This document shows positions 3,083 to 19,949 of a DNA stretch of 20,155 nt, in pieces. This DNA is from Candidatus Eiseniibacteriota bacterium. GTDB taxonomy: Bacteria; Eisenbacteria; RBG-16-71-46; DASYSL01. Below the pieces are notes generated by a model. The model saw nothing but the letters and a program-made list of their open reading frames with translations, was not told where the DNA came from and did no database searches. The stretch is from contig JANPEF010000029.1 in assembly GCA_031431875.1 (NCBI GenBank), positions 1 to 20,155 of the forward strand. The letters are read 5' to 3'. A program made the position numbers and the translations under genes. The stretch's first letter is position 1. Each line of letters begins with the position of its first letter.

Positions 3083-3232
3083 TCAGTTCGTCTCTGCCCA
3101 GACCCGGTCGACGAAGGCGTCATCGCGCAGCAGCGTCTTCACGTCCAGGATGACGAAGGCTTCAAGGTCGTCGGCCCGCACGTACTCCTCATCGCACCGC
3201 TTCACCCGCTCGCGCGTCAGGCAGGCGTATCT
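3083..3232 (-). pseudogene. Fragment of a large serine recombinase (zinc-ribbon to coiled-coil junction)
   Basis: My translation, not in the ORF track: RYACLTRERVKRCDEEYVRADDLEAFVILDVKTLLRDDAFVDRVWAETN*. It matches the Y-x-C-x8-C-x4-(I/V)xAxxLExxV..L.D pattern of LSR zinc-ribbon regions. There is no start codon, and it begins just after the stop of the 3269-4264 gene. Confidence 0.7.
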
Positions 3233-3268: not shown

Positions 3269-4264
3269 TTAGCGGTACGCGACCTTGAGCGCGCCCCAAC
3301 TCGAGCGTTGCGCCGATGTGGGAGTGCAGTTGAGTCCGGAGAACTGAATCAGGTACTTGGAGCCGCAGGCAACGCGTGCGCGCATGTACAAGACGAGCCA
3401 CAGTCGATAGCGCCCTGGAAGCAGCACTCCGTTGAACGCGATCCCATGCGTGGTCTGCCAGTATCCAAGATCCTCTCCGGGATCCGCGCCGGTCGGCAGC
3501 CGGGACAACTGCCACTCGAGCGTGGTTCGCCCGGACATCGTGATCGTCACCATGGACGCGGTGGCCAGTTCGAACTCGTAGAAGTCCACGTCGTGCGGTG
3601 CCTCGGCGCTCGAGTTCCAACCGTGCGTCCCGCACACCGTGACCTCCGACCCGGTGCAGGGGACCGTGGTTGCGTGACACCCGCCCGCGAGGCTGCAACC
3701 GTTGAAGTCATCGACATAACCGGGGAGGCACGAGTTCTCGCCCTCCTGGATGGCACCGGGTGGGCACCGCACGTACACGGGCTCGCAAGTTCCCGCACAC
3801 TCGTCGATCGAGAGAATGTACTCGCCGCAGAAACCGCCCTCGCCGTCGATCACGACATAGTAGGGCGAGCCACCGACCAGGGATAGTTGGCCGATATATC
3901 CGCCCTTGAGACAATTGCCCGAGTCGCAAACGAGGCGTGTGCGCGAGGCATCATAGACACTCACGGAGCCCCAGAAGGCCGAATTGCACATCGAGATCGT
4001 GACCGTCATGTCGTGGTCGGGAACGTACCGGTAGACCACGTCGGGCGCGCCCGGAGGGTGAGGGCCGCAAATGGTGACGGCATCGTCCCCAAAACCGCAG
4101 GTTGATCCGGTCGCAAGGAGAGGCAGTCCCGGCACGGAAAAGGCGTCGTCGAACGTATCCCCCGGGATCCCTGCTCCGGCCTCTCCCGAGATCGCGCCCG
4201 CGCCCACGAACATCAGGAGCAACCAGGCCGCCACCCGGCCCCGGGCTCGAATCCGATGCGTCAT
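3269..4264 (-). CDS. Secreted Cys-rich protein with PPC-like beta-sandwich modules and C-terminal SWGALKVAYR motif
   Basis: GGGGAG SD upstream of ATG at 4264 (preferred to 4300). Signal peptide MTHRIRARGRVAAWLLLMFVGAGAISGEAGA, motifs APDVVYRY, YYVVIDG and DVDFYEF, many Cys residues. Ends TSAQRSSWGALKVAYR. Confidence 0.85.
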   Translation of the reverse strand: MTHRIRARGRVAAWLLLMFVGAGAISGEAGAGIPGDTFDDAFSVPGLPLLATGSTCGFGDDAVTICGPHPPGAPDVVYRYVPDHDMTVTISMCNSAFWGSVSVYDASRTRLVCDSGNCLKGGYIGQLSLVGGSPYYVVIDGEGGFCGEYILSIDECAGTCEPVYVRCPPGAIQEGENSCLPGYVDDFNGCSLAGGCHATTVPCTGSEVTVCGTHGWNSSAEAPHDVDFYEFELATASMVTITMSGRTTLEWQLSRLPTGADPGEDLGYWQTTHGIAFNGVLLPGRYRLWLVLYMRARVACGSKYLIQFSGLNCTPTSAQRSSWGALKVAYR

Positions 4265-4432
4265 GAGCTGTCTCCCCGCGTGAACCCCGGGAGAGCCCAT
4301 CTCGCTCGGGAAAAGAGCGTTGCGCCGCGACGGGCGAGGGTCAAGAGCTTAGTGGCCTGGTCCGGAAGGAAGTCCGGACGGCGCGATTACCGTCCCGGGT
4401 GTCGGGGCGCGGTCCAATCCGGGGCCGCTCAT

Positions 4433-4551: not shown

Positions 4552-6672
4552 ATGGCCCCCGTCCGCTCGCACGTCGCACCGCTTCTCGCCGCCTGCTTCT
4601 CGCTGGTCCTCGCTTCTCCCGCGTTCGCGGTCACGGCGACCGGGCGCCTCCAGGTCATCCATCTCGACGTCGGGCAGGGAGACGGGGCGGTGCTCATCTC
4701 GCCGCTCGGCCAGGTCGTGATGATCGACAACGGGGTGAGTACCAACCCGACGCCGGCGATGGGAGTGAAGGTCCCGGCCCAGTTGCAGGCGCTCGGTGTC
4801 ACGCACGTCGATTACCACTTCGCGAGCCACTACCACTCCGATCACATCGGGCTGTTCAAGACGATCTTCGGCGTGGGCGGTGTCGCGACCCTCGGCTACG
4901 GCTGGGACCGCGGCTTCTCGTACACGACGCAGACCTACACCGACTACGTCGCCACCGTGGGTACCAAGCGGCGCACGCTCGCCAAGGACCAGGTCATCAC
5001 GCTCGACTCGCTGTCGGCGCACCCGGTCTACATCAAGTGCGTGGACCTCAATGCCCCGGGCAGCACGACGACCGACGAGAACTCGAACTGCCTGGTGCTG
5101 AAGGTGAGCTACGGCGAGTTCGACATGTCCTTCGGCGGCGATCTGCCCGGGGCGACCACGGGAAGTTACGTGAACATGGAGACGACGATCGGGCCCCCGA
5201 CGGGCTCACTCGAGGCCTACAAGGTGCACCACCACGGCTCGGCGAGCTCGAGCCACGCAGCCTGGCTTGCCGCCACGCAACCGAAGGTCGCCGTCGTGTC
5301 GGCCGGCACCGGCAACTCCTACGGACATCCCACGGCCGCGGCGATGAACCGTCTCCACAGCGCGGGAACGAAGGTGTACTGGACGGAGACCGGCTCGGGT
5401 GCCGCGCCGCTGGCGGGCTGGGACAAGGTGTCGAATGGTCAGGTCATCCTCTCCGCGACCTGGGAGCCGGGCGGCGTCGACACGATTCGCGGCAACGGCT
5501 TCGCCGACACGTTCACCAACTCGGGCACGCCGCTCGACACGACGCCGCCGCTCGTGGTGCTGAACGCGCCTGACGGGGGCGAGGACTGGACGGTCGGCTC
5601 CACGCAGGCGATCACCTGGACCGCATCGGATGCCGTTGGCGTGACCGTGGTGGACCTCGATTACTCGACCGACGGCGGAGCGACGTATCCCAACCCGATC
5701 GCGAACGGGCTCGCCAACAGCGGCTCGTTTGCGTGGATCGTGCCCGGCCCGTCGACCAGCGCCGCCCGCGTGCGGGTGACCGCGCGTGACGCGGCAGGCA
5801 ATGCGGCGCAGGACGGCAGCAACGCCGACTTCAGCATCAGCCTCGATGCCCGCAGTCTCACGATTGCCATCGTCGGACAGGGCACTGTCGTCGCGACGCC
5901 GAACCTCGTGTCGTACCCGGATGGCGCGACGGTGCAGCTCGATGCAGCGGCCGCACTCGGCTGGGCGTTCACGGGGTGGAGCGGCGACCAGAGCGGGACT
6001 GAGAATCCGCTCTCGTTCGCCATGCTTTCCGACTTGGGCGTCACGGCCCACTTCGCGGATGTGGTCGCGCCCGACGTCGTGATCAACTCACCCAACGGGG
6101 GCGAGGTGCTCACCGCCGGCCAGCAGAGCACCATCTCGTGGACCGCGGAGGACAATGCCGCCGTGGACTCGGTCCAGGTGGAGTGGTCGCCGTCGGGCAT
6201 GGCCGGGCCGTGGGTGCTCCTCGAGCACGGCCTGAGCAACTCCGGCGAGGTGGGGTGGATCGTCCCGAACCAGGCGACCGACAGCGCCTACGTGCGCGTA
6301 CTCGCGTTCGACGGCGCCGCGAACACGGGGAACGATGCGAGCGACGCTGCGTTCAAGATCCTCGGCTCGGGCCCGGTGGCAGTGGGGGATGGCGCGGCCG
6401 TCCTCGCCCTCTCGGCCCCGGCTCCGAACCCCGCGTACGGCGCCGCCCTGCTTCGCTTCTCGCTTCCCTTTGCGGGCACGGCGCGTCTCGACCTGGTGGA
6501 CATCGCCGGCCGGCGCGTCTGGAGCGTCGAGGGTGCCTTCGCGGCGGGCGCGCACACGTGGACGTGGAGCGGGTCCGCTGCGCAGGGAGGCCGGGTGCGG
6601 GCCGGGCTGTACTTCGTGCGGCTGGTCACGCCGTGGGGAGCGCGCTCCGAGCGGTTCGTCGTGCTCCGGTAG
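4552..6672 (+). CDS. Secreted ComEC/Rec2-type metallo-beta-lactamase-fold hydrolase with Ig-like repeats and C-terminal FlgD Ig-like domain
   Basis: AGGAG at 4542-4546 before ATG 4552. Signal peptide ends ASPAFA. Motifs LDVGQGDG, IDNG, SHYHSDHIG, DENSN, GGDL, KVHHHGS, NSYGHP. Two P(D/N)GGE..G...I.W.A.D Ig-like repeats, an InlB-B-like GWAFTGWSGD module, and a C-terminal PNP..DIAGRRV..GLYFVRL. Confidence 0.92.
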   Translation: MAPVRSHVAPLLAACFSLVLASPAFAVTATGRLQVIHLDVGQGDGAVLISPLGQVVMIDNGVSTNPTPAMGVKVPAQLQALGVTHVDYHFASHYHSDHIGLFKTIFGVGGVATLGYGWDRGFSYTTQTYTDYVATVGTKRRTLAKDQVITLDSLSAHPVYIKCVDLNAPGSTTTDENSNCLVLKVSYGEFDMSFGGDLPGATTGSYVNMETTIGPPTGSLEAYKVHHHGSASSSHAAWLAATQPKVAVVSAGTGNSYGHPTAAAMNRLHSAGTKVYWTETGSGAAPLAGWDKVSNGQVILSATWEPGGVDTIRGNGFADTFTNSGTPLDTTPPLVVLNAPDGGEDWTVGSTQAITWTASDAVGVTVVDLDYSTDGGATYPNPIANGLANSGSFAWIVPGPSTSAARVRVTARDAAGNAAQDGSNADFSISLDARSLTIAIVGQGTVVATPNLVSYPDGATVQLDAAAALGWAFTGWSGDQSGTENPLSFAMLSDLGVTAHFADVVAPDVVINSPNGGEVLTAGQQSTISWTAEDNAAVDSVQVEWSPSGMAGPWVLLEHGLSNSGEVGWIVPNQATDSAYVRVLAFDGAANTGNDASDAAFKILGSGPVAVGDGAAVLALSAPAPNPAYGAALLRFSLPFAGTARLDLVDIAGRRVWSVEGAFAAGAHTWTWSGSAAQGGRVRAGLYFVRLVTPWGARSERFVVLR

Positions 6673-6735: not shown

Positions 6736-6802
6736 GATCACGGAACGCGGCGGCGATTTCCCGACACCCATTCGACTCCGCACGCCGCTTCGTTCCGTGA
6801 TC
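6736..6802. other. Long inverted repeat (12 bp + 6 bp stems, 27-nt loop)
   Basis: GATCACGGAACG (6736-6747) pairs with CGTTCCGTGATC (6791-6802). GCGGCG (6750-6755) pairs with CGCCGC (6783-6788). Confidence 0.7.
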
Positions 6803-6870: not shown

Positions 6871-6914
6871 GGTTCGAGTCCCATCCGGGGAGCCATCTGT
6901 GGCTGTGTACGAAC
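6871..6914 (+). repeat. att-like site 1: tRNA-Asn-type 3'-end fragment joined to an attP-type right arm (attL-like hybrid)
   Basis: GG-TTCGAGT-CCCAT-CCGGGGA-G-CCA (6871-6895) has tRNA T-loop/acceptor spacing with the Asn-type GGAGCCA end. The right arm TGTGGCTGTGTACGAAC (6898-6914) is identical to 16326-16342. Confidence 0.75.
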
Positions 6915-7070
6915 AGGGTCGGCGCGAGCCGGCCCGTTCGTGTTTCAGGGGCAGACGCTCCACCCGTGGTCCGTGGGGGCCAGGATGAAGCAGGAACTGG
7001 CCCCGGGCAGGCGACCCCGGGCTGCCCGGGGTCGATGGCGCAGGAGCGGACAGCCCGGCTGCCGTTAGGG

Positions 7071-7076
7071 TAGATT
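7071..7076 (+). promoter_or_regulatory. -10 hexamer TAGATT 6 nt before ATG; probable leaderless transcript
   Basis: TAGATT-CCGCCG-ATG, with no Shine-Dalgarno directly upstream of ATG 7083. Confidence 0.5.
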
Positions 7077-7082
7077 CCGCCG

Positions 7083-9755
7083 ATGGCACTCACCCCCGGC
7101 ACCAGGCTTGGACCCTACGAGATCGTTGCGCCCATCGGCGCAGGCGGGATGGGGGAGGTGTATCGCTGCCGCGATACCCGCCTCGGTCGCGACGTGGCCG
7201 TCAAGATCCTCCCTCCCGGCTTTGCCGCCAATGAGGCATCGCGCGCCCGCTTCGAGCGGGAAGCGCGAACCGTGTCGTCGCTGAATCATCCGAACATCTG
7301 CACGCTCTTCGATGTCGGCCGTGAGGACGACACGGACTACCTGGTGATGGAGTTGATCGAGGGCGAGTCGCTGGCCGAGCGTCTCCTGAAGGGCCCGCTG
7401 CCGTTGGAGCAGGTCGTGCGCTACGGGGCGCAGATCGCCGACGCACTGGGCCGCGCGCATCGACAGGGGATCATCCATCGGGACCTCAAGCCCGGCAACG
7501 TGATGATCACGAAGTCGGGGGCCAAGCTCCTCGACTTCGGTCTCGCCCGTTCCGGGCAGGACGCATCGCCCTTGCAGGGCATGACGGTGATGGCGACGCA
7601 GGCGATGCCGCTGACCCAGGAAGGAACGATCCTCGGGACCTTCCAGTACATGGCCCCGGAGCAACTCGAGGGGATCGAGGCCGATGCGCGCACGGACATC
7701 TTCGCCTTCGGGGCGCTGCTCTACGAGATGGCGACGGGGAAGTGCGCCTTCGAGGGAGCCACGCGAACCTCGCTGATCGCGGCCATCGTGTCGGGAACCC
7801 CGCGTCCGATGAGCGAGCTGGTGCCGCTGACGCCGCCGGCGCTCGAGCATGTCGTGCGCCGCTGCCTGGCGAAGGACCCGGACGATCGCTGGCAGAGCGC
7901 GGCGGACGTCGGGAACCAGCTGCACTGGATCTCCGAGGCCGGATCGCGCGCCGGCGAGGCGGCGCCGCTGGCGGCTCGGCGACGCTTCCGTCTCCGTGCC
8001 GCGTGGGGCCTGCACGCCGTGACCGCGGCGGCGGCCGTGGCCGCCACGCTCGGAATCGCCGCGATGCTGCGAGCTCCGGCGCCGGTCTTGAACACGTCGA
8101 TCCTCCCGCCGAAGGACCTGCGCATCGATCTCGGTGTCGGCGCTCCGGCCCTCTCGCCCGACGGCCTGCGCCTTGCCTACGTGGCCGCCAGCCAGGACGG
8201 CAAGTCCGCCCTGTGGGTCCGGACCCTCTCCACCGGCTCCGCGCAGGCGCTGCCAGGGACGGACGGGGCCGCGCACCCCTTCTGGTCGCCGGATAGCCGG
8301 CAGATCGGCTTCTTCGCCTCGGGCAAGCTCAAGAGGATCGAAGCGTCGGGCGGGCCGGCGCAGACGATCTGCGACGTGTCGCAAGGGCGCGGGGGCGCCT
8401 GGGGGGGCGACGGGACGATCCTCTTCACCCCGAACCCATCGGCGTCGCTCCACCGCGTGCCGGTGACGGGAGGGGCGCCGGTCGCGGAAACGGAACTGGA
8501 CTCGACGCGGAACGACACCTCGCACCGGTACGCCGAGTTCCTTCCCGACGGAAAGCACTACCTGTTCCTCGTCCAGTCGTCGATCGAGACCCCGGGAACC
8601 GATCAGGGATTCGCGGTGTTCGCGGGTGTGCTCGGCTCGAAGGAGAGGAAGATGGTGGTCGCAACGAGCGGGCAGGCACGGTTCTCGCCGGAGACGGGGC
8701 AGTTGCTCTTCCTCCGGGGCGGCGCGCTGGTCGCGCAGAAGTTCGATCCCCGGACGGGGTCGCTCTCCGGAGAGGCTGTGCCCATCACCGATGCCGTGCG
8801 GCGGAGCGGGCGCTTCGAGGCGGCCTTCAGCCTGTCCCGGACCGGTCTCCTGGTCTTCCACGCCGGCAGCAGCGGCGAGCCATCCGAACTCGTCCTGCTC
8901 GACCGCACCGGCAGGGATGTCGGGTTGGTCGGCAAGACGGTCGCCGATTACCGTTCGCCGAGACTCTCGCGCGACGGGACGCGCGTGGCGGTGGGGATCA
9001 CCGACCCGGGCACCCAGAAGTCCGACGTGTGGGTGATGGACGTGGCGCGCGGAACCTCCACGCGCCTCACGTTCGATCCCGAGAACGACTTCGGTCCGGT
9101 CTGGTCGCCCGACGACCGGAGGATCTACTTCTCCTCGCTCCGGAGCAAGCGCGGCGACATCTTCGCCAAGTCGAGCTCGGGAACGGGGACGGAAGAGACG
9201 ATCTACGCGGGCCCGAACAACGAGATCCTCACGCAAGTCTCACCGGACGGAGCACTTGCCTGGATCATCGCCGACCAGCCCAGGCAGTCCTGGGACATCC
9301 TCCGCCTCGACCTCCAGTCCGGCAAGGCCACGGACTTCATCTCGACGCCCTTCCTCGAGTGGGGGCCATCCCCCTCACCCGATGGGCGCTGGCTCGCGTA
9401 CGCATCCGTCGAGTCGGGGCGGGGTGAGGTCTACGTCCAGTCGCTCCTCGACGACGGCGGCAAGTGGCAGATTTCCACCGACGGCGGTGGATACATGGCA
9501 TGGACGCGCGGCGGGAGGGAGATCATCTACCAGGGGAACGACCGCAAGCTGATGGCCGTGGACATCCGCCTCGAGCCCACGTTCCAGGCCGGGACACCGA
9601 AAGTCCTCTTCGATCCTCGGATGCAGGTGAGCCCCGGCAAGGAGTGGGACGTCATGGCCGACGGCGAGCGCTTCCTCGTGAACCGCGTGATCGAAGCCCC
9701 GGGCGTGGAGCCGCTCACCCTCGTCCAGAACTGGCCCGCGACGCTCAAGAAGTGA
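7083..9755 (+). CDS. Hanks-type Ser/Thr protein kinase with TM helix and TolB/PD40 beta-propeller domain
   Basis: IGAGGMGEVY, VAVK, HRDLKPGN, DFGLA, GTFQYMAPE. Hydrophobic segment at about aa 316-338. Repeated (W/F/L)SPDG-type PD40 motifs. Ends LVQNWPATLKK. Confidence 0.95.
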   Translation: MALTPGTRLGPYEIVAPIGAGGMGEVYRCRDTRLGRDVAVKILPPGFAANEASRARFEREARTVSSLNHPNICTLFDVGREDDTDYLVMELIEGESLAERLLKGPLPLEQVVRYGAQIADALGRAHRQGIIHRDLKPGNVMITKSGAKLLDFGLARSGQDASPLQGMTVMATQAMPLTQEGTILGTFQYMAPEQLEGIEADARTDIFAFGALLYEMATGKCAFEGATRTSLIAAIVSGTPRPMSELVPLTPPALEHVVRRCLAKDPDDRWQSAADVGNQLHWISEAGSRAGEAAPLAARRRFRLRAAWGLHAVTAAAAVAATLGIAAMLRAPAPVLNTSILPPKDLRIDLGVGAPALSPDGLRLAYVAASQDGKSALWVRTLSTGSAQALPGTDGAAHPFWSPDSRQIGFFASGKLKRIEASGGPAQTICDVSQGRGGAWGGDGTILFTPNPSASLHRVPVTGGAPVAETELDSTRNDTSHRYAEFLPDGKHYLFLVQSSIETPGTDQGFAVFAGVLGSKERKMVVATSGQARFSPETGQLLFLRGGALVAQKFDPRTGSLSGEAVPITDAVRRSGRFEAAFSLSRTGLLVFHAGSSGEPSELVLLDRTGRDVGLVGKTVADYRSPRLSRDGTRVAVGITDPGTQKSDVWVMDVARGTSTRLTFDPENDFGPVWSPDDRRIYFSSLRSKRGDIFAKSSSGTGTEETIYAGPNNEILTQVSPDGALAWIIADQPRQSWDILRLDLQSGKATDFISTPFLEWGPSPSPDGRWLAYASVESGRGEVYVQSLLDDGGKWQISTDGGGYMAWTRGGREIIYQGNDRKLMAVDIRLEPTFQAGTPKVLFDPRMQVSPGKEWDVMADGERFLVNRVIEAPGVEPLTLVQNWPATLKK

Positions 9756-9891
9756 TCGGGCAGCCTTGCGCAGGGGCCTGACGTGAACCGTACCGTGTTT
9801 GCCGGAGGCTCCATTCCCTGAGGGGGTCTGGACGTCGCTTCGACGTGGACTGGGCCCAGGAGCGCAAGGGCTCAAGACTCCCGTGAACCAC

Positions 9892-9999
9892 TCAGGAACG
9901 CAATGCTCCGCGCAGCATTGTTAAGGCATGTAGCTGCAACGCGATCGCCCAATTCGGTCTCAGGCACAGAGTTCGAAATGAGTAAAGGAAGGGGAGCCA
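9892..9999 (-). pseudogene. Remnant resembling the C-terminal tail of a large serine recombinase, overlapping att-like site 2
   Basis: Reads WLPFLYSFRTLCLRPNWAIALQLHALTMLRGALRS*. WLPxxxxxRTLC resembles LSR C-termini that read through their att site (my recollection, not searched). Locally lower GC. Confidence 0.45.
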
Positions 10000-10007
10000 A
10001 ATGTGAC
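9971..10007 (+). repeat. att-like site 2
   Basis: GTTCG-AAATGAGTAAAGGAA(15 nt)-GGGGAGCCA-AATGTGAC. Same spacing as sites 3-5, and CCA-n-ATGTG-n-C matches the start of the site 4 right arm. Confidence 0.6.
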
Positions 10008-10131
10008 CCCCGCGACTCGCGGAACTGCGGGGGTTCGCTATTCGGGTGGTCGGCACGAGCACGGGAGACGCGAAACGGCGTGAGATCGCCGTGTATGCTA
10101 CCGTCGGAGCGCTCTCTCCGGAGGTGCCGCC

Positions 10132-12972
<2,841 letters not shown>

Positions 12973-13131
12973 GGGCGTGAAGGTTGGCTCCTCCCTGCTT
13001 GCGGACCGAAGTCTTTGCACCGGCCGCGATTCAAGGCGCTGCTGGCGAAGTTATGGCAAAGGGGAGGCCCGGTAATCGACCTGTCCGGGGACGCCCCTCT
13101 CGTTCTGGCCCACGAGGATAGCTGGCGTAGT

Positions 13132-13204
13132 TCGTGGAAGACGCGGAATACGGCTCTTTCCGTCGCCCAGGAACCGTTCGTACACTGGGCAACCTGGGGA
13201 GCCA
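13132..13204 (+). repeat. att-like site 3 with about 44 nt of conserved left flank
   Basis: GTTCG(13176-13180)-TACACTGGGCAACCT-GGGGAGCCA. Ungapped alignment to 16251-16323 gives 58/73 identities by my count. GTTCGTACAC is the exact reverse complement of the right-arm GTGTACGAAC. Confidence 0.8.
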
Positions 13205-13327
13205 CTTTCCATGCACTACCCGACGGGTGGGCGTCAGCCGGCCCGTTTGTGTCGGGTGACGTCGTGACTCCGATTCGCGTGCTCTTCGGCAGTGACCCCA
13301 TGCTACCCTTCAGAGCCCTCCAACCCA

Positions 13328-13376
13328 TCATGCTCGCGTCCCTCGGCGCGTCCCTCGGCGCGTCCATCGAGCATGA
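13328..13376. repeat. 12-bp tandem repeat (about 2.6 copies) enclosed by a 9-bp inverted repeat
   Basis: CGCGTCCCTCGG x2 plus CGCGTCC (13335-13365). TCATGCTCG (13328-13336) pairs with CGAGCATGA (13368-13376). Confidence 0.7.
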
Positions 13377-13426
13377 CCGGCCTCACGCCGGCACATGGAT
13401 TCGCACCCATATCGAGGGAGGTCGAC

Positions 13427-16192
13427 GTGTTCATCCCATCGATGAATCCAAGACATCGTACGCCGCTTCGATCCGCGGGACGCTTCCTGGTCGCCCTGGG
13501 GATGACGGTGTGCCTCGCGCCCTGCACGGCATGGGCGCAAGTGCCCGATCCGAAGGTGTGGGTGACCGACGGCGCCGTGGACGCCATCGCACTCGCGGAG
13601 AACACCATCTACCTGGGCGGAACCTTCACCTACGTCGGCCCGAACACCGGGCACTTCGTCGCGATCGGCGCCGAGACGGGGGCCCCGGAACCGGGCTGGC
13701 CGAGGGTCAACGGCATCGTCGAATGCGCCGCGCCGGATGGCGAGGGCGGGTGGTACATCGGGGGATCCTTCACTTTCGTGGGTGGTGTCCCCCGGACCCA
13801 CCTCGCCCACATCCGCGCGGACCGGACGCTCGACGGGTGGAACCCAGGGGCGAACGGATACTTCGTGCACACCCTGGTGGTGAGCGGCTCGACGGTGTAC
13901 GCGGGCGGTGACTTCACGAGCATCGGCGGGCAGAGTCGCAACTACATCGCAGCCCTGGATGCCACCAGCGGACTCGCCACGCCGTGGAACCCCGGGGCGG
14001 ACGCCGACGTGCGCACCCTCGTGGTGAGCGGCCCGACGGTGTACGCGGGCGGAGAATTTTCCAGCATCGGCGGGCAGAGCCGCAGCCACATCGCGGCGCT
14101 CGATGCCACGACCGGGCTCGCCACCCCATGGAACCCCGCGGCGGACTACTACGTGCGGGACCTGGCGGTTAGCGGCTCGACGGTGTACACGGCCGGCAAC
14201 TTCACCAGCATCGGCGGGCAGAGCCGCGATCGTATCGCGGCGCTCGATGTCGCCAGCGGACTGGCGACTGCGTGGAATCCTGGCGCGGATGGCCTCGTGC
14301 TCACTCTCGCGGTGAGCGGCCCGACGGTGTACGCCGGCGGCCACTTCACCAGCATCGGCGGGCAGAGCCGCATCCGCATCGCGGCTCTGGATGCCACGAC
14401 AGGTCTCGCCACCGCGTGGAACCCGGGGGCGGGCAATGGCGTGATCGACCTGGCCGTGAGCGGTCCCACGGTCTACGCGGCCGGCAGCTTCACCGACATC
14501 GGTGGACAGAGCCGCAGGTACATCGCGGCATTGGATGCCGCCACGGGAGCCGCCACCGCGTGGAACCCGGGGGCGAACGCCTACGTGAATACGCTGGCGG
14601 TGAGCGGCTCCGCGGTGTTCGCGGGGGGCGACTTCGCCAGCGCCGGAGGACGGAGTCGCTCGAACATCGCGGCGCTCGATGCCACGACCGGGGCGGCCAC
14701 CGACTGGAACCCGGGGGCGGATGGCGTCGTGCTCACGATTTCGGTGAGTGGCTCGACGGTGTACGCGGGAGGTGGATTCTTCACGATCGGGGGGCACGAC
14801 CGCAGGCACATCGCGGCGCTGGATGCCGTCACCGGACTGGCCACCGCGTGGAACCCGGCGGCGAACTCGAGCGTGCTCGCACTCGAGGTGAGCGGCCCGA
14901 CGGTGTACGCCGGCGGCACCTTCACTAGCGTCGGCGGACAGACCCGCCTGCACGTCGCGGCGCTGGATGCCTTCTCCGGGCTCGCCACCGCGTGGAACCC
15001 GGAGGCGAACTCGGACATCGTTGCCCTGGCGGTGAGCGGCCCCAGGGTGTATGCCGGTGGTTCCTTCGCGTGGATCGGTGGGCAAAGCCGCACCGGCATC
15101 GCGGCCCTGGATGCCGTCACCGGGCTCGCCACGGAATGGAACCCGGGGGCCAATTCGACCGTGCGCACCCTGGTCGTGAACGGCTCGTCGGTGTATGCGA
15201 CCGGTTTCTTCACCAGCATCGGCGGGGAAAGCCGCAGCCGCATCGCGGCGCTGAATGCCACCACCGGGCTCGCCACGCCGTGGAACGCAGGGACGATCGG
15301 TCCCGGGGAGAGCGGCCCCGGGGGGCTCGGCCCGTTCGTCTTCGCCGTCGCGGTGAGCGGCTCCACGGTGTACGTGGGCGGAGGATTCTCCAGCATTGGC
15401 GGGCAGAATCGCGGCAATCTCGCGGCGCTCGATGCCATGACCGGCCTTGCCACGGCATGGAATCCGGGGGCGGACGCCGACGTGCTCGCCTTGGCCGTGA
15501 GCGGCTCGACGGTCTATGCGGGCGGGACCTTCTACTGGATCGGCGGGGGGAACAATCAGGGGTTCGCGGCCTTGCGCCCCGATGCGAGCGCGCCCGCGGT
15601 CCGGGTACTCTCGCCCGACGGCAACAGCCCGCTCCTGATCGGGACGCCACGCCATCTCGATTGGGCTGCGAGCGACGATCTCGATGTGCAAAGCGTGGAT
15701 CTCTACCTCTCGCGCAACGGCCCGGGTGGCCCCTGGGATCTGCTCGCCGCCGCTGCCCCGAATACCGGGTCGTACCTCTGGACCGTCGTGGGCCCGGGAG
15801 TGCCCGGCAACGACGCCTACCTGCTCGTGGCGGCTCGGGACTACAGCGGAAACCTCGGGACCGACATCTCCAACAGTGGGTTCATCATCTCGGGCTCCGT
15901 GGGGGATGCCGGGCCGGACCCTGGAGTCTTCGCGTTCGCGCTCTCCACGCCCGCCCCGAGCCCGACGACCCATCGATCACTGCTGGCCTACGCCGTCCCC
16001 TCGCGAACGCGCGTGCGACTCTCCCTGTTCGACGTGAAGGGCCGCGAAGTGGCCGTGCTGGCTGACGGCGTGCTCGACGCCGGGCGCCACACTGCCACAA
16101 TCGAGGCGACGGAGCTGCATTCCGGGATGTACTTCGCGCGCCTGCAGGCCGCGGGAAGGGAGCTTGCGCGGCGCGTGGTGGTGGTGAAGTGA
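13427..16192 (+). CDS. Secreted beta-propeller repeat protein (14 repeats of about 48 aa) with Ig-like and C-terminal FlgD/T9SS-like domains
   Basis: GGAGGT at 13417-13422 before GTG 13427 (ATG 13442 is an alternative). Signal peptide ends CTAWA-Q. Twelve WNPGAxxxVxxLAVSGxTVYAGGxFTSIGGQSRxxIAALDAxTGLATx repeats plus two divergent ones. Ends LFDVKGREVAVL..SGMYFARL. Confidence 0.92.
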   Translation: MFIPSMNPRHRTPLRSAGRFLVALGMTVCLAPCTAWAQVPDPKVWVTDGAVDAIALAENTIYLGGTFTYVGPNTGHFVAIGAETGAPEPGWPRVNGIVECAAPDGEGGWYIGGSFTFVGGVPRTHLAHIRADRTLDGWNPGANGYFVHTLVVSGSTVYAGGDFTSIGGQSRNYIAALDATSGLATPWNPGADADVRTLVVSGPTVYAGGEFSSIGGQSRSHIAALDATTGLATPWNPAADYYVRDLAVSGSTVYTAGNFTSIGGQSRDRIAALDVASGLATAWNPGADGLVLTLAVSGPTVYAGGHFTSIGGQSRIRIAALDATTGLATAWNPGAGNGVIDLAVSGPTVYAAGSFTDIGGQSRRYIAALDAATGAATAWNPGANAYVNTLAVSGSAVFAGGDFASAGGRSRSNIAALDATTGAATDWNPGADGVVLTISVSGSTVYAGGGFFTIGGHDRRHIAALDAVTGLATAWNPAANSSVLALEVSGPTVYAGGTFTSVGGQTRLHVAALDAFSGLATAWNPEANSDIVALAVSGPRVYAGGSFAWIGGQSRTGIAALDAVTGLATEWNPGANSTVRTLVVNGSSVYATGFFTSIGGESRSRIAALNATTGLATPWNAGTIGPGESGPGGLGPFVFAVAVSGSTVYVGGGFSSIGGQNRGNLAALDAMTGLATAWNPGADADVLALAVSGSTVYAGGTFYWIGGGNNQGFAALRPDASAPAVRVLSPDGNSPLLIGTPRHLDWAASDDLDVQSVDLYLSRNGPGGPWDLLAAAAPNTGSYLWTVVGPGVPGNDAYLLVAARDYSGNLGTDISNSGFIISGSVGDAGPDPGVFAFALSTPAPSPTTHRSLLAYAVPSRTRVRLSLFDVKGREVAVLADGVLDAGRHTATIEATELHSGMYFARLQAAGRELARRVVVVK

Positions 16193-16250
16193 TCGGGAGC
16201 GACGCCCGGGCAGAGGCCCCGTTCCGGCCCGGGAGGGCTCCCGGGATTGG

Positions 16251-16345
16251 TCATGGAAGACGCGAAATACGGCCCTCTCCGTGACCCAGGGCCGGTTCGC
16301 ATACTGGGCACCTCGGGGACCCAGATGTGGCTGTGTACGAACCGG
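16251..16345 (+). repeat. att-like site 4: complete attP-like site (16292-16345) plus conserved left flank
   Basis: CCGGTTCG (16292-16299) and CGAACCGG (16338-16345) form a perfect 8-bp inverted repeat, extendable to 11/13. The 54-bp span is centred on GA at 16318-16319 within GGGGACCCA. Confidence 0.8.
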
Positions 16346-16423
16346 ACTCCCCCGGGGTCCGGCTGAGGCTCGGTCAGGCGGCAAGCGCGGGCAACTCAAG
16401 TGGCGTTCGCAATCAGGCTGCGA

Positions 16424-16459
16424 AATCGCGGCGGCCTCGGCGAATCGCGGCGACCTCGG
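16424..16459 (+). repeat. 17-bp direct repeat with 19-nt period upstream of the FG-GAP gene
   Basis: AATCGCGGCGGCCTCGG (16424-16440) and AATCGCGGCGACCTCGG (16443-16459). Confidence 0.6.
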
Positions 16460-16599
16460 TGGCTTGGACTCTCACATTAGGGTAAGCTTATCCGCGCCGT
16501 TCTTGGTGCCTCGCTGACTCGCTTCGAACTTGGACTCCCGCGGTGGTCCAGCCACTCCCGCCGCAGGGGTTTTCCCACCCGTGGCTGAAGCAGGCGCTC

Positions 16600-19092
16600 A
16601 TGGATCGCTTGGAGACCACACCGCCCATCCGGGGTGAGTTCACTCGCCGGGCCGCAGTCTTCGTGTTTCTCATTGCGAGCAGTGCCTCGGTTGCTGCCAC
16701 GCGATCCGCCGCCGATCCGCTCCTTGCCGCACCGTTCCTCTCGTACGACGCGGGGATCAATCCCTACTCCGTTGCGATCGGAGACTTCAACGGGGACGGG
16801 AACCCGGACTTGGCAGCGGCAAACTCTGGCGCCAGCACGGTGTCGGTGTTGCTCGGCTACGGGAACGGGACCTTCGGGGCGACGACGGACTTCGGGACGG
16901 GGAGTGGGCCCCGCTCCGTGACGATCGGAGATCTGAACGCGGACGGAAACCCCGACCTGGCGACGGCAAACTTCGACGCCAACACCGTGTCGGTCTTGCT
17001 CGGCATCGGCAATGGGAGCTTTGAGGAGAAGACGGACTTCGCGGCAGGGGATCATCCCTGCTCCGTGGCGATGGGAGACCTGGATGGGGACGGGATCCCC
17101 GACCTTGCGATGGCGAACGACTCCACCAGCATGGTGTCCGTGTTGATCGGCAGAGGTGACGGGACCTTCAGGACGAAGACGGACTTCGGGGTGGGGAGTG
17201 AGCCCCACGCCGTGGCGATGGGAGACCTGAACGGGGACGGGATCGCCGACCTGGTGACGGCGAACCGCTTCGACAACACGGTGTCGGTCTTGCTCGGCGA
17301 CGGGAACGGGGACTTCAGGTCGAACCGGGACTATGGCGCGGGGTTGCACCCCATCTCTGTGGCGATCGGGGACCTGAATGGGGACGGGATTCCCGACCTG
17401 GCAACGGCGAACTTCTCCTCCTCCCAGGGGGTGTCGGTGTTGCTCGGCGACGGGAACGGCACATTCGGGGCGAACGCGGACTTCGCGACGACTCCATATC
17501 CCTTCTCCGTGGCGATCGGGGATCTGAATGGGGACGGGAAGCCGGACCTGGCGACGGGGAGCGATGGTTCAAACGTCGGGTCGGCGTTGCTCGGCAACGG
17601 CGACGGGACCTTCGGGACGAAGATGGACTTCGCGACGGGAGCTACCCCCGTCTCGGTGGCGCTCGGGGACTTGAACGGGGACGGATCCCTTGACCTGGCG
17701 ACGGCGAACTGGGGCTCCCGCACAGTGTCCGTGTTGCGCGGCAACGGCGACGGGACCTTCGGGGCGAACACGGACGTCGGGGTGGGGGATCATCCCAACT
17801 CCGTGGCGATGGGAGACCTGAACGGAGACGGGAACCCCGACCTGGCGACGTCGAACGAGGACACGTACACGGTCTCTCTGTTGGTCGGAAACGGCGACGG
17901 AACCTTTGGGGCAGGAACGGATTTCAGCACGGGAGGTCTTCCCTTCTCCGTGGCGATCGGGGATCTGAACGGGGACGACAGAGCCGACGTGGCAACGGCG
18001 GACTACTTCGGCACGGTGTCGATCCTTCTTGGCAACGGCGACGGGACCGTCGGTGTGCGAACGGGCTTCGACACGGGGAAGTATCCCACCTCCGTGGCAA
18101 TCGGGGATCTGAACGGGGACGGGATCGCCGATCTGGCCGCGTCGCTCATCGGCGCAGGCACGGTGGTGGTGTTGCTCGGCAACGGTGACGGGACCGTCGG
18201 AGCGTCAACGGACTTCGGGACGGGGATTGCTCCTTTCTCCGTGGCGATCGGGGACCTGAGCGGGGACGGGATCCCCGATCTAGCGACGGCGAACGCTTTC
18301 GACTACACAGTGTCGGTGTTGCTCGGCAGGGGTGACGGGACCTTCCAGACGAATCGGGACTTCGGGACGGGGGACAATCCCGTCGCCGTGGCGATCGGGG
18401 ACTTGAATGGGGATGGGAGCCCCGATCTGGCGACGGCCAACTACGAGGCCAGCACGGTGTCGGTGCTAGCCGGCAACGGTGACGGGACCTTCAGGACCAA
18501 GACGGATTTCGGGACGGGGAGGAATCCTCGCTCCGTGGCGATCGGGGACTTGAACGGGGACGGGCGCCCCGACCTGGCGACGGCGAACCTGTATGCCAAC
18601 ACGGTGTCGGTGTTGCTCGGGAACGGTGACGGGAGCTTTGGGACGAAGACGGACTTCGGGACGGGGGGTGGCCCCCATTCTGTGGCGATCGGGGACCTCA
18701 ACGGGGACGGAAACTCCGACGTGGTGACGGCGAACGCTTTCGGCAACACGGTGTCGGTGTTGCTCAACCTCCGCAGCGCTGTCTCGGTCCCGGAAGACGC
18801 TGACGCGCTCCCACGCCTGGTTGAGTTCGCTCCGCCTCGCCCGAACCCGGGCCGCGAGAACGTGAGCTTCGAGTTCGCACTTCCGCGCGAAGCCCAGGTG
18901 TCGCTCGCGGTCTTCGATGCGGCGGGGCGCATCGTTCGCAAGATCGCCGAGACCTCGTTTGTCGCGGGACGTCACGTGCTGGTGTGGGATCACCGAAATC
19001 GCGATGGGCAGGCGGTTCCGAGCGGCGTGTACTTCGTCCGTTTCCAGGTCCCGGGTGTGGTCCTGACGAGGAAGACAATTCTGATCCGGTAA
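16600..19092 (+). CDS. Secreted FG-GAP/VCBS repeat protein (14 repeats of about 49 aa) with C-terminal FlgD Ig-like domain
   Basis: Fourteen [20 protein letters not shown] repeats. Hydrophobic N-terminal segment [18 protein letters not shown]. Ends [28 protein letters not shown]. The start is uncertain (ATG 16600 preferred). Confidence 0.93.
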
Positions 19093-19096
19093 GATC

Positions 19097-19126
19097 GGTT
19101 CGCACTCTGGGCAACCCGGGGAGCCA
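19097..19126 (+). repeat. att-like site 5
   Basis: GGTTCG-CACTCTGGGCAACCC-GGGGAGCCA starts 5 nt after the FG-GAP stop. It shares CTGGGCAACC-GGGGAGCCA with site 3. No recognisable right arm. Confidence 0.78.
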
Positions 19127-19208: not shown

Positions 19209-19949
19209 ATGCAAAGCAAAGTGACTGAGATCGCGGCAGATACCTATCGGATCTCCACGTTTCATCCTGAATATGGGATTCAGTTCAACCAATTCCTCAT
19301 CAAGGATGAGGAGCCGTTCCTGATGCATACCGGATTCAAGAGCATGTTTCCAGCAACGCTTGATGGATTGAGTTCGATCATCGATCCCGCCAAGCTGCGC
19401 TGGATCGGATTCAGCCACTTTGAATCCGATGAGTGCGGCGCGTTGAACGAGTTGCTTGCAGTTGCTCCGCACTCGCAGGCGGTTTGCGGTGTGGTTGGCG
19501 CGATGGTCATGATCAACGACTTCGCAGACCGCGCACCGCGGCCGCTGGCCGACAATGAAGTCCTGCAGACTGGAAAGCATCGGCTGCAATTCCTCGCCAC
19601 GCCGCATGTGCCGCACTGCTGGGATGCCGGCCTGTTCTTCGACGAGACCGAACAGACCCTGCTTTGCTCGGATCTCTTCTTTCAGCCGGGCGATCCCGAG
19701 CCGCTGACCGAGTCCGACATCGTCGGGCGGGCGAGAGATTCAATCCAGGACAGCCTCACGGGGCCCCTGGCGAAGGACATGCCCTACACCCCGTACACGG
19801 AAAGCACCCTGCATCGGCTTGCCGACTTGAAGCCAAAGAGCCTGGCGATCATGCACGGCTCCTCGTTCCGTGGCGACGGCGGGAGAGCCATCAACGACCT
19901 GGCGGTAGTGATCAAGGCTCTCCTGGGTGAACCCGGGAGCGGGTCCTGA
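19209..19949 (+). CDS. Stand-alone FprA/ODP-like MBL-fold (di-iron) protein
   Basis: AGGAGG at 19197-19202 before ATG 19209. Motifs [37 protein letters not shown]. No flavodoxin domain. Confidence 0.88.

Follow-up and report, generated by a model that had tools for sequence, protein, structure and literature searches.

Integrons, which operate with IntI, attI, and attC, are characterized by rows of small gene units in one orientation, with variable content and order. Related kinds of stacking have been described for several classes of genomic islands. In Dehalococcoides, the ssrA islands (DsiB) lie in tandem at the 3' end of a t(m)RNA gene, a reverse-strand serine integrase gene with an unclear stop codon overlaps the left att site, and many of the units have no integration module (PMC3146451). 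Cis-mobilizable elements (CIMEs) are decayed elements that have lost their integration genes but kept their att sites and are stacked by later arrivals (PMC5704250), while in SCCmec and other staphylococcal cassette chromosome (SCC) elements, which employ CcrAB or CcrC, recombinase-less neighbors bounded by large serine recombinase (LSR) att sites can be excised singly or jointly (PMC11470126). An attP placed within the integrase gene, such that integration alters or splits the enzyme, has been described for IntP of Mx8 (PMC6070905) and for the archaeal suicidal integrases (PMC8371274). Serine integrases account for <1% of the att-delimited islands in the species covered by a recent survey (10.64898/2026.01.13.699239).

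The locus examined here lies on a 20,155-bp stretch of DNA (the window), which is the entire contig C29 (JANPEF010000029.1) of a Candidatus Eiseniibacteriota genome, whose 3.75-Mb assembly of 166 contigs is referred to as G000. The original prediction for this stretch described an integron-like array of one-gene cassettes delimited by five co-oriented sites, here designated s1 to s5 from left to right; units 1 to 4 are the intervals between them and unit 5 follows s5. We find that the region is probably a stack of islands that was built through accretion by a tRNA-Asn-specific LSR and subsequently decayed, with the decayed units having moved again. The system shares with the Dehalococcoides ssrA islands the tandem stack, an integrase overlapping its att site, and integrase-less units. 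Its graded remnants of the LSR and of an LSR tail, as well as the co-oriented joints downstream of tRNA-Asn on C67 and G004:C204, accord with tandem accretion arrays of the ssrA island and CIME type. With integrons it has in common small co-oriented units of variable content and order. Bare C-numbers denote contigs of G000, G001 to G005 and G008 are related genomes, G206, G207, and G209 are genomes with relatives of the LSR, and L-numbers are loci; none of the conclusions depends on the unpublished genome G007.

Five sites and their arms

The predicted pattern was found on the + strand at 6872-6895, 9971-9999, 13176-13204, 16295-16323, and 19098-19126 and nowhere on the - strand of the window, and the proposed centers (6890, 9994, 13199, 16318, and 19121) each proved to be the G of a central GA, from which arm positions are counted here (negative to the left, positive to the right). 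Over 300 dinucleotide-type shuffles of the window, the pattern matched only once in total, while genome-wide it matched 13 times in G000 versus 0 times in G000 read backwards. Gene calls confirmed that each adjacent pair of sites brackets one + strand gene; the intervals from s1 to s5 measure 3104, 3205, 3119, and 2803 bp, and their domains are Pkinase plus PD40, Pkinase plus TPR, a DUF5122 propeller, and FG-GAP plus FlgD, respectively. Position-weight scans of G000 recovered 17 sites on 7 of its 166 contigs, all in a single orientation per contig, and several of these stand in stacks headed by tRNA arms that lack the tRNA. In the reversed-genome control, neither of the two attP-arm matrices yielded a match, whereas the tRNA-arm matrix yielded eight, with scores ≤22 compared to 36-42 for the five real ones. 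Assembled contigs from 4 of 20 listed public runs were mapped onto the window, runs with small shares having been left out, and every site was bridged by a contig with ≤4 differences from run X1 or X4, which are possibly the source samples. Within the window, ARAGORN called no tRNA, an Rfam scan gave no match close to the gathering score and nothing relevant, and no integrase gene was found.

The spacing of the arms identifies the class of site. In serine integrases, a 9-bp outer motif contacted by the zinc domain occupies attP positions 16-24 and is located 5 bp further inward in attB (PMC3783163). Here, the left arms carry GTTCG at either -24 (the attP arm) or -19 (the tRNA arm), and full right arms run to a CGAAC whose last base is at +24, the inverse of the -24 motif. 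The -19 form is made up of the tRNA-Asn T-arm and acceptor end; G000 has one gene for this tRNA, on C67. Since the difference between the -24/+24 and -19 spacings equals the 5-bp attP/attB shift, s1 is of attL type, s4 is a complete attP-type joint, and s2, s3, and s5 combine an attP left arm with some other right side. Thus, the serine recombinase att sites of the original prediction were upheld, but they are not five copies of one palindromic site; each is a different joint of a left and a right arm, and among them s4 alone has attP-type arms on both sides. Other joints with the inverted -24/+24 arrangement occur on C5, C79, and C108, and mirrored right arms with the motif at +19 on C106, G001:C267, and L056; the right arm behind the native tRNA has no +19 motif. 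Taken together, the window sites are LSR att sites, specifically hybrid joints of a tRNA-Asn-targeting family, and the symmetry of the arms along with the joints of unlike arms points to crossover at the central GA, as had been proposed.

The individual arms fall into recurrent classes. The s1 left arm is of the same type as the tRNA-Asn on C67, while its right arm ends in GAAC at +24 and is followed by a hairpin of class H2 without an LSR stub. In the hairpin classes H2 and H3, the attP arm ends at approximately +25 and leads into the hairpin with no LSR sequence, and both recur ahead of unrelated cargo in many units. The s2 left arm belongs to a separate second class, also present in G008 and G004, and is not a worn copy of the first, and the H1 hairpin after s2 stands behind tRNA-Asn on C67 as well. 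The s5 site starts 5 nt past the stop codon of the FG-GAP gene.

The recombinase, its target, and its tail

A matching LSR does exist in the lineage. The sole PF07508 match in G000 is a 467-codon frame on C39, which lies on the strand opposite a site, reads through the right arm of that site, and carries PF00239 (Resolvase), PF07508 (Recombinase), and PF13408 (Zn-ribbon) above their cut-offs. Its 5' end runs off the contig, which removes ~64 N-terminal residues including the catalytic serine, and the missing part was not found elsewhere in G000; full-length close relatives, 85% identical, do exist. In 40 loci with relatives of this LSR, drawn from other genomes of several phyla, tRNA-Asn immediately adjoins the 3' end of the LSR gene, through the same joint, in 18, in agreement with the predicted target, while one has a tRNA-Asn fragment, five have tRNA-Glu, and 16 have no called tRNA. 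Elements with both ends visible measure ~37 kb (G206), 64 kb (G207), and 6 kb (G209). The C39 LSR scores 154 bits against the CcrB profile, for which the cut-off is 900. As for the expectation of tRNA-Asn and an intact LSR at an end of the array, the window holds LSR remnants but no tRNA, and s1 retains the tRNA arm only. Our literature search, which covered the titles and abstract openings of papers available without subscription, found no paper on this tRNA-Asn LSR family or on this phylum.

The LSR reading frame does not stop at the crossover. We confined the frame analysis to left arms of the main class, excluding the other arm classes and s5, which has no tail, and found that beyond the crossover the LSR frame stays open through 23 codons in all 23 arms, with their length unchanged, and gives a conserved peptide. 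At tail codons 17-23, the conserved motif has a synonymous share of 0.67 versus 0.05-0.46 in the five other frames (as the arms are related, this does not amount to a formal test). Five arms keep 87-114 tail codons that end in a helix-turn-helix (HTH), and two database proteins (P0010 and P0078) read naturally from the LSR through attP into the tail domain. In a model of P0078, the linker is disordered, there are three strands, and the helical domain is well predicted, with weak Foldseek likeness to Noc, ParB, and Spo0J (E 0.14-0.52), and PF17762 was detected in 13 of the 16 tail homologs scanned at E≤0.05, mostly near or under its cut-off. The tail by itself gave no Pfam match below 0.1 and no match to a solved structure. 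Designating it as ParB-like, on the basis of its homologs and of the weak Foldseek matches, is tentative. A search for long fusions with the tail returned a single protein, itself a short read-through. Among the elements with two visible ends, the far-end tail of G206 is open for ~190 codons in the frame of its own LSR, and in G209 the LSR and tail have a common frame, differing from that of G206, until a later shift. In unrelated LSRs, this domain is encoded by its own gene directly behind the LSR. Overall, the att site appears to divide the LSR from a ParB-like HTH tail, such that the circular form would encode either an extended enzyme or a partner coupled to it, and integration would take the tail away.

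Decay, reordering, and the heads of the stacks

The arms of the units retain graded pieces of both coding parts. LSR gene remnants on the right arms measure 26-235 nt and HTH tail remnants on the left arms ~25-265 nt (ungapped estimates); at s4, for example, ~100 nt of tail remains on the left, and on the right the 3' end of the LSR gene survives as a stub of 15 codons (16313-16357, - strand). LSR fragments without any att site are present at C29:3086, C67:50931, and C106:74258, and the first of these marks the DNA to the left of s1 as that of a decayed island as well. Among the units listed, 21 could be followed from end to end within a single contig (9 from G000, 1 from G001, 2 from G002, 6 from G004, 1 from G008, and 2 from metagenome contigs), with genes called by our own codon-score script. 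Nine of these have a single gene and 12 have 2-9 genes, the sizes range from 1.5 to 11.6 kb, and the unit leaders are 90-280 nt long and contain hairpins. One gene per unit therefore holds for the window, but not as a rule. Because the arm remnants vary greatly in length and 12 of the 21 units are multi-gene, the units probably descend from LSR islands. Accordingly, the purpose-built one-gene cassettes of the original prediction were not borne out, while the eroded tRNA islands that it offered as the mundane alternative seem to be the origin of the units. A gene-less unit of ~226 bp occurs at G001:C55:1-218, where an attP right arm with its LSR stub is fused straight to an attP left arm. The features of the window are collected in Table 1.

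Table 1. Coordinates of the sites, remnants, and genes in the window
Feature	Position	Strand	Description	Crossover
s1	6872..6914	+	attL-type: tRNA-Asn-like T-arm on the left (GTTCG at -19, rest of tRNA absent), full attP-type right arm	6890/6891
s2	9971..10040	+	Second-class attP-type left arm; right arm cut at ~11 nt, then hairpin H1	9994/9995
s3	13176..13245	+	attP-type left arm (GTTCG at -24); right arm without attP motif, retains hairpin H2	13199/13200
s3 LSR C-terminal tail remnant	13101..13199	-	~33 codons, in LSR frame from the s3 crossover	
s4	16216..16357	.	Complete attP-type joint at 16295-16342, inverted GTTCG..CGAAC at -24/+24	16318/16319
s5	19098..19126	+	attP-type left arm without tail remnant; the ODP unit starts on the right side	19121/19122
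Unit 1 cargo	7083..9755	+	Ser/Thr kinase with PD40 (TolB-like) propeller, 890 aa	
Unit 2 cargo	10132..12972	+	Ser/Thr kinase with TPR repeats; start 10132 or 10210	
Unit 3 cargo	13445..16192	+	DUF5122-type beta-propeller repeat protein, tail like type IX secretion system (T9SS)/FlgD; start uncertain	
Unit 4 cargo	16600..19092	+	FG-GAP repeat protein with FlgD-like tail	
Unit 5 first gene	19209..19949	+	ODP-family metallo-beta-lactamase-fold protein, 59% GC; unit leaves contig	
Left neighbor of s1	4552..6672	+	ComEC/metallo-beta-lactamase (MBL)-fold protein with Ig and FlgD-like domains	
Internal LSR fragment	3086..3229	-	Residues 260-307 of the C39 frame, 75% identical, without att site	

In related genomes, units have been gained, lost, and reordered with breakpoints that fall at the sites, the pattern that the original prediction had proposed to look for. 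G002 is a congener whose neighboring core DNA is 92-95% identical. Its contig C12 has the order fumC, tRNA-type arm, ODP gene, FG-GAP(a), attP joint, LSR stub, and FG-GAP(b), while the window has the order attP joint, shorter LSR stub, FG-GAP(b), attP left arm, and ODP gene. The 5' part of the FG-GAP gene of unit 4 stands behind the longer LSR stub in G002:C12 (87%), and the ODP unit is 97% identical between the two; the left arms that precede it in the two genomes are unlike and agree in no more than the last bases ahead of the GA. The ODP and FG-GAP(b) units are LSR-free in both G000 and G002, and because the far end of the stub is common to both genomes, the LSR was presumably lost before the copies parted. 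The same units thus stand in another order with breakpoints at the GA, which argues that recombination continued after the loss of the LSR. These order swaps point to site-specific events that postdate LSR loss, and they would be compatible with an enzyme acting in trans or supplied by a neighbor that has since decayed. The order in G002 also suggests that C139 continues C29, the two having no contig overlap. In G001:C55, the kinase-TPR gene (87% DNA identity) is flanked by two sites whose arms are not those of the window and precedes the MBL gene, while the window has the MBL gene first. In G001, a site that carries an LSR stub precedes the MBL gene, and behind this gene comes, with no site between them, the gene that succeeds FG-GAP(a) on G000:C139. 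The kinase-type right flank was found behind seven sites with varied left arms, including the tRNA itself, the fumC type, and several of attP type. On G001:C348, genes from three G000 contigs, belonging to different units, are adjacent with no site detected, and shuffling without sites apparently occurs as well. Neither a circle nor an empty-site joint was present among the joints listed from the contigs of the four runs; as assembled contigs drop rare forms, this does not argue for their absence. The one joint at a site among those listed (19126 to 10004, with 7 letters between) matches the chromosomal site C67:38390 and is not a circle.

Stacks of this kind have heads of two types. They begin at tRNA-Asn itself on C67 and on G004:C204, where five co-oriented sites extend from tRNA-Asn onward. 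Others, including that of the window, begin at a tRNA arm without a tRNA, namely behind fumC (C39, C79, and G002:C12), the C108 gene, the MBL gene (s1), and a catalase-like gene (G004:C201), and all of these arms start at the T-loop. No common upstream sequence that could mark a mobile end was found between different loci among the matches listed. On C39, the sequence continues beyond the point where the arm sits in G002 and C79, and a separate arm lies 85 nt on, at another GTTCGA. C39 and C79 hold two fumC alleles with 88% DNA identity, each ~90% identical to G002 and thus under the 92-95% of neighboring core DNA; an LSR follows one and a kinase unit the other, and given their divergence one allele may stem from a co-binned relative. 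C108 of G000 and C170 of G002 represent one locus with different cargo.

Several further observations concern these loci. A 10.6-kb block with sites at both ends (G000:C106:71262-81881) stands in place of the entire 95-nt spacer and promoter before pfkA, where G001, G002, and G004 have a plain spacer; since the block replaces the whole spacer, homologous recombination in the flanking genes is suggested as its entry. At G000:C106:81631-81700 and in G001:C267 (L133:12523), an attP left arm is joined to a mirrored tRNA-like arm, and an inverted attP-like right arm comes within the next ~70 nt; read on the opposite strand, the stretch has a tRNA-shaped look and possibly an acceptor stem. The first unit at tRNA-Asn on G004:C204 includes a 194-aa frame (9358-9939) that by eye resembles a bare tyrosine recombinase catalytic domain. 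ARAGORN also called a tRNA-Sec gene at G000:C56:20177-20274.

As for cargo, kinases are nothing special in this genome, as G000 has 45 kinase-domain matches on 31 contigs. Many array genes of G000 to G004, as well as a - strand gene at 3269-4300 of the window, encode secreted-looking proteins that end in a short motif like SWGxxKxxYR, while other array proteins end in FlgD/T9SS-like tails, and both types of end often stop just ahead of a left arm. The window further holds a 147-aa Lys/Ala/Arg-rich frame (2415-2858) with a histone-like resemblance and no Pfam match. A stretch containing TTCGACTCC (6760-6790), 100 nt ahead of s1 and retained in G001, resembles the 3' end of the G000 tmRNA, which may be due to chance.

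Competing explanations and significance

In the history that we favor, an autonomous circle would carry an LSR gene whose 3' end includes the 48-bp attP and would recombine at the GA with the 3' end of tRNA-Asn or with a tRNA-like arm. This would place a tRNA arm, an attP right arm, and the LSR body at one end of the integrated element and an attP left arm with the LSR tail at the other; the anatomy of these ends is observed, while the reaction itself is drawn from LSR biochemistry. Newer arrivals would reuse the joint and displace older islands downstream, consistent with the observed series of co-oriented joints, some of which are complete attP. Deletions would then strip the LSR and most genes, leaving the 1-9 cargo genes between arms with variable stubs that are seen today, and the LSR-less units would have been moved again by GA crossover, most likely with or by an intact relative, in keeping with the swaps between genomes. 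Integration would also sever the ParB-like HTH tail from the LSR, and attP alone would restore it, which may bias the system toward capture, the open frame being observed and the role proposed.

The alternative nearest to the original prediction is a true cassette system, in which an LSR acting in trans excises recombinase-less units as circles and reinserts them at the head of the array, using several tRNA arms as landing pads. It would readily accommodate the recurrence of LSR-free H2 and H3 right arms, the opposite order that two LSR-free units have in G000 and G002, where the joint between unlike left arms falls exactly at the GA, an ODP unit more similar (97%) than the flanking core DNA (92-95%), and the exchanged cargo of G000:C108 and G002:C170; Ccr LSRs supplied on a plasmid have likewise been described to excise recombinase-less neighbors (PMC11470126). 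However, units of 1.5-11.6 kb, of which only 9 of the 21 listed are single-gene, fit such a system poorly, and three of the five window right arms have no attP motif, so a full attP could arise only from unit 4 and perhaps unit 1. The kinase-TPR arms differ on both sides in G001, and thus the cargo and its ends are no fixed unit, while genes of separate G000 units are adjacent without sites on G001:C348 and no circle joint was among those listed. We therefore regard a true cassette system as rather unlikely. A broader version, for which we also see limited likelihood, is a multi-locus network in which one LSR family would cut and paste LSR-free units, each with standard ends of an attP arm and a terminator, in trans between tRNA-Asn and several landing pads of transplanted T-arms, and the HTH tail, regained at attP joints alone, would switch the enzyme between capture and release. 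The eroded-island and cassette readings are compatible in that decayed units still moved.

Two other explanations were weighed. Some tyrosine integrases cross over at the tRNA T-loop, which is where s1 and the five other tRNA-less arms start, and direct repeats left by tyrosine integrase islands at tRNA-Asn (displaced 3' fragments), later eroded to single genes, may thus account for the seeds of the arrays; L087, L105, and L106 also have longer tRNA-Asn fragments ahead of the LSR. For s2-s5 this explanation is refuted, since their tRNA match is limited to the last bases and the -24 motif is present. In addition, the right arms run on into the LSR gene and all three G000 tyrosine recombinases are on other contigs, making it quite improbable for the array. 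A T-loop-crossing tyrosine integrase could still have delivered the tRNA-less arms, and no such enzyme was found. The last explanation, a REP-like or terminator-like repeat or an assembly artifact, might be prompted by the hairpins behind several sites and by a fragmented assembly with two fumC alleles. It was rejected, as the 17 sites are confined to 7 of 166 contigs and co-oriented on each rather than scattered in both orientations, the reversed control gave no match to the attP-arm matrices, the arms code for LSR sequence, and run contigs bridge every site.

Several observations weigh against an island stack formed by accretion and decay. The model does not account for the origin of the tRNA-less arms (s1, C39, C79, C108, G002:C12, and G004:C201), and no att site was seen at empty loci in relatives, whether behind fumC in G003-G005, before pfkA in G001, G002, and G004, or behind the MBL gene in G001. 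The recurring LSR-free H2 and H3 right arms before different cargo resemble a standard non-autonomous end more than independent decay, and s5 is trimmed to 5 nt beyond the motif. Because the C39 frame loses its N-terminus at the contig end, no intact LSR is demonstrated in G000. With regard to the tail, some arms have an ATG or GTG at tail codon 3, and in G207, one of three elements, the far-end tail does not share the frame of the LSR that lies at the tRNA; the tail is therefore possibly a separate gene.

Even so, an island stack remains our preferred account, and the locus is best classed as a small-scale variant of the known accretion-decay stacks of Dehalococcoides and staphylococci rather than a new kind of integron. 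Relative to the ssrA islands as published, the target here is tRNA-Asn, the units measure 1.5-12 kb, stacks may also begin at tRNA arms that lie elsewhere than the tRNA, a ParB-like HTH tail is tentatively identified as the missing C-terminus, and order swaps are mapped to the GA. Unlike the described CIMEs, this system has a serine recombinase, and no conjugation or mobilization module turned up in the units, though none was searched for. SCC elements target rlmH with cassettes of 17-26 kb, in contrast to tRNA-Asn here, where the LSR falls far under the Ccr cut-offs and excision is putative. The archaeal suicidal integrases are described as tyrosine recombinases, whereas the serine integrase here retains three Pfam core domains and loses only its tail. 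IntP of Mx8 is a tyrosine recombinase as well. Unlike integrons, the locus has no IntI, its arms are of the double-strand LSR type, and its units have long leaders and terminators and probably descend from integrase-bearing islands; the integron trait of mostly single genes does not hold for the listed units. The bounding sites are LSR-type, and the Rfam scan noted no attC, the attC model not being among the scans. The absence of IntI from the array, as stated in the original prediction, holds for the window; elsewhere in the genome, G000:C74:4663-5766 (L010:1450-2553, - strand) encodes an IntI (TIGR02249, 459 bits, above cut-off) on a 9-kb contig without any of the sites.

These results provide a mapped attP/attB pair and an enzyme family for tRNA-Asn in several phyla, a conserved target that is useful in genome engineering. 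The HTH tail is a candidate answer to the missing integrase C-terminus that was left open in the ssrA island study (PMC3146451). The comparative evidence, with its order swaps at the GA and tRNA-less landing pads, is unusually direct for asking whether such remnants still move. Accretion and decay can evidently end in an array that resembles, and may partly behave like, an integron. If the multi-locus cassette network were true, an uncultured phylum would have its surface proteins and kinases shuffled in the manner known from integrons elsewhere.

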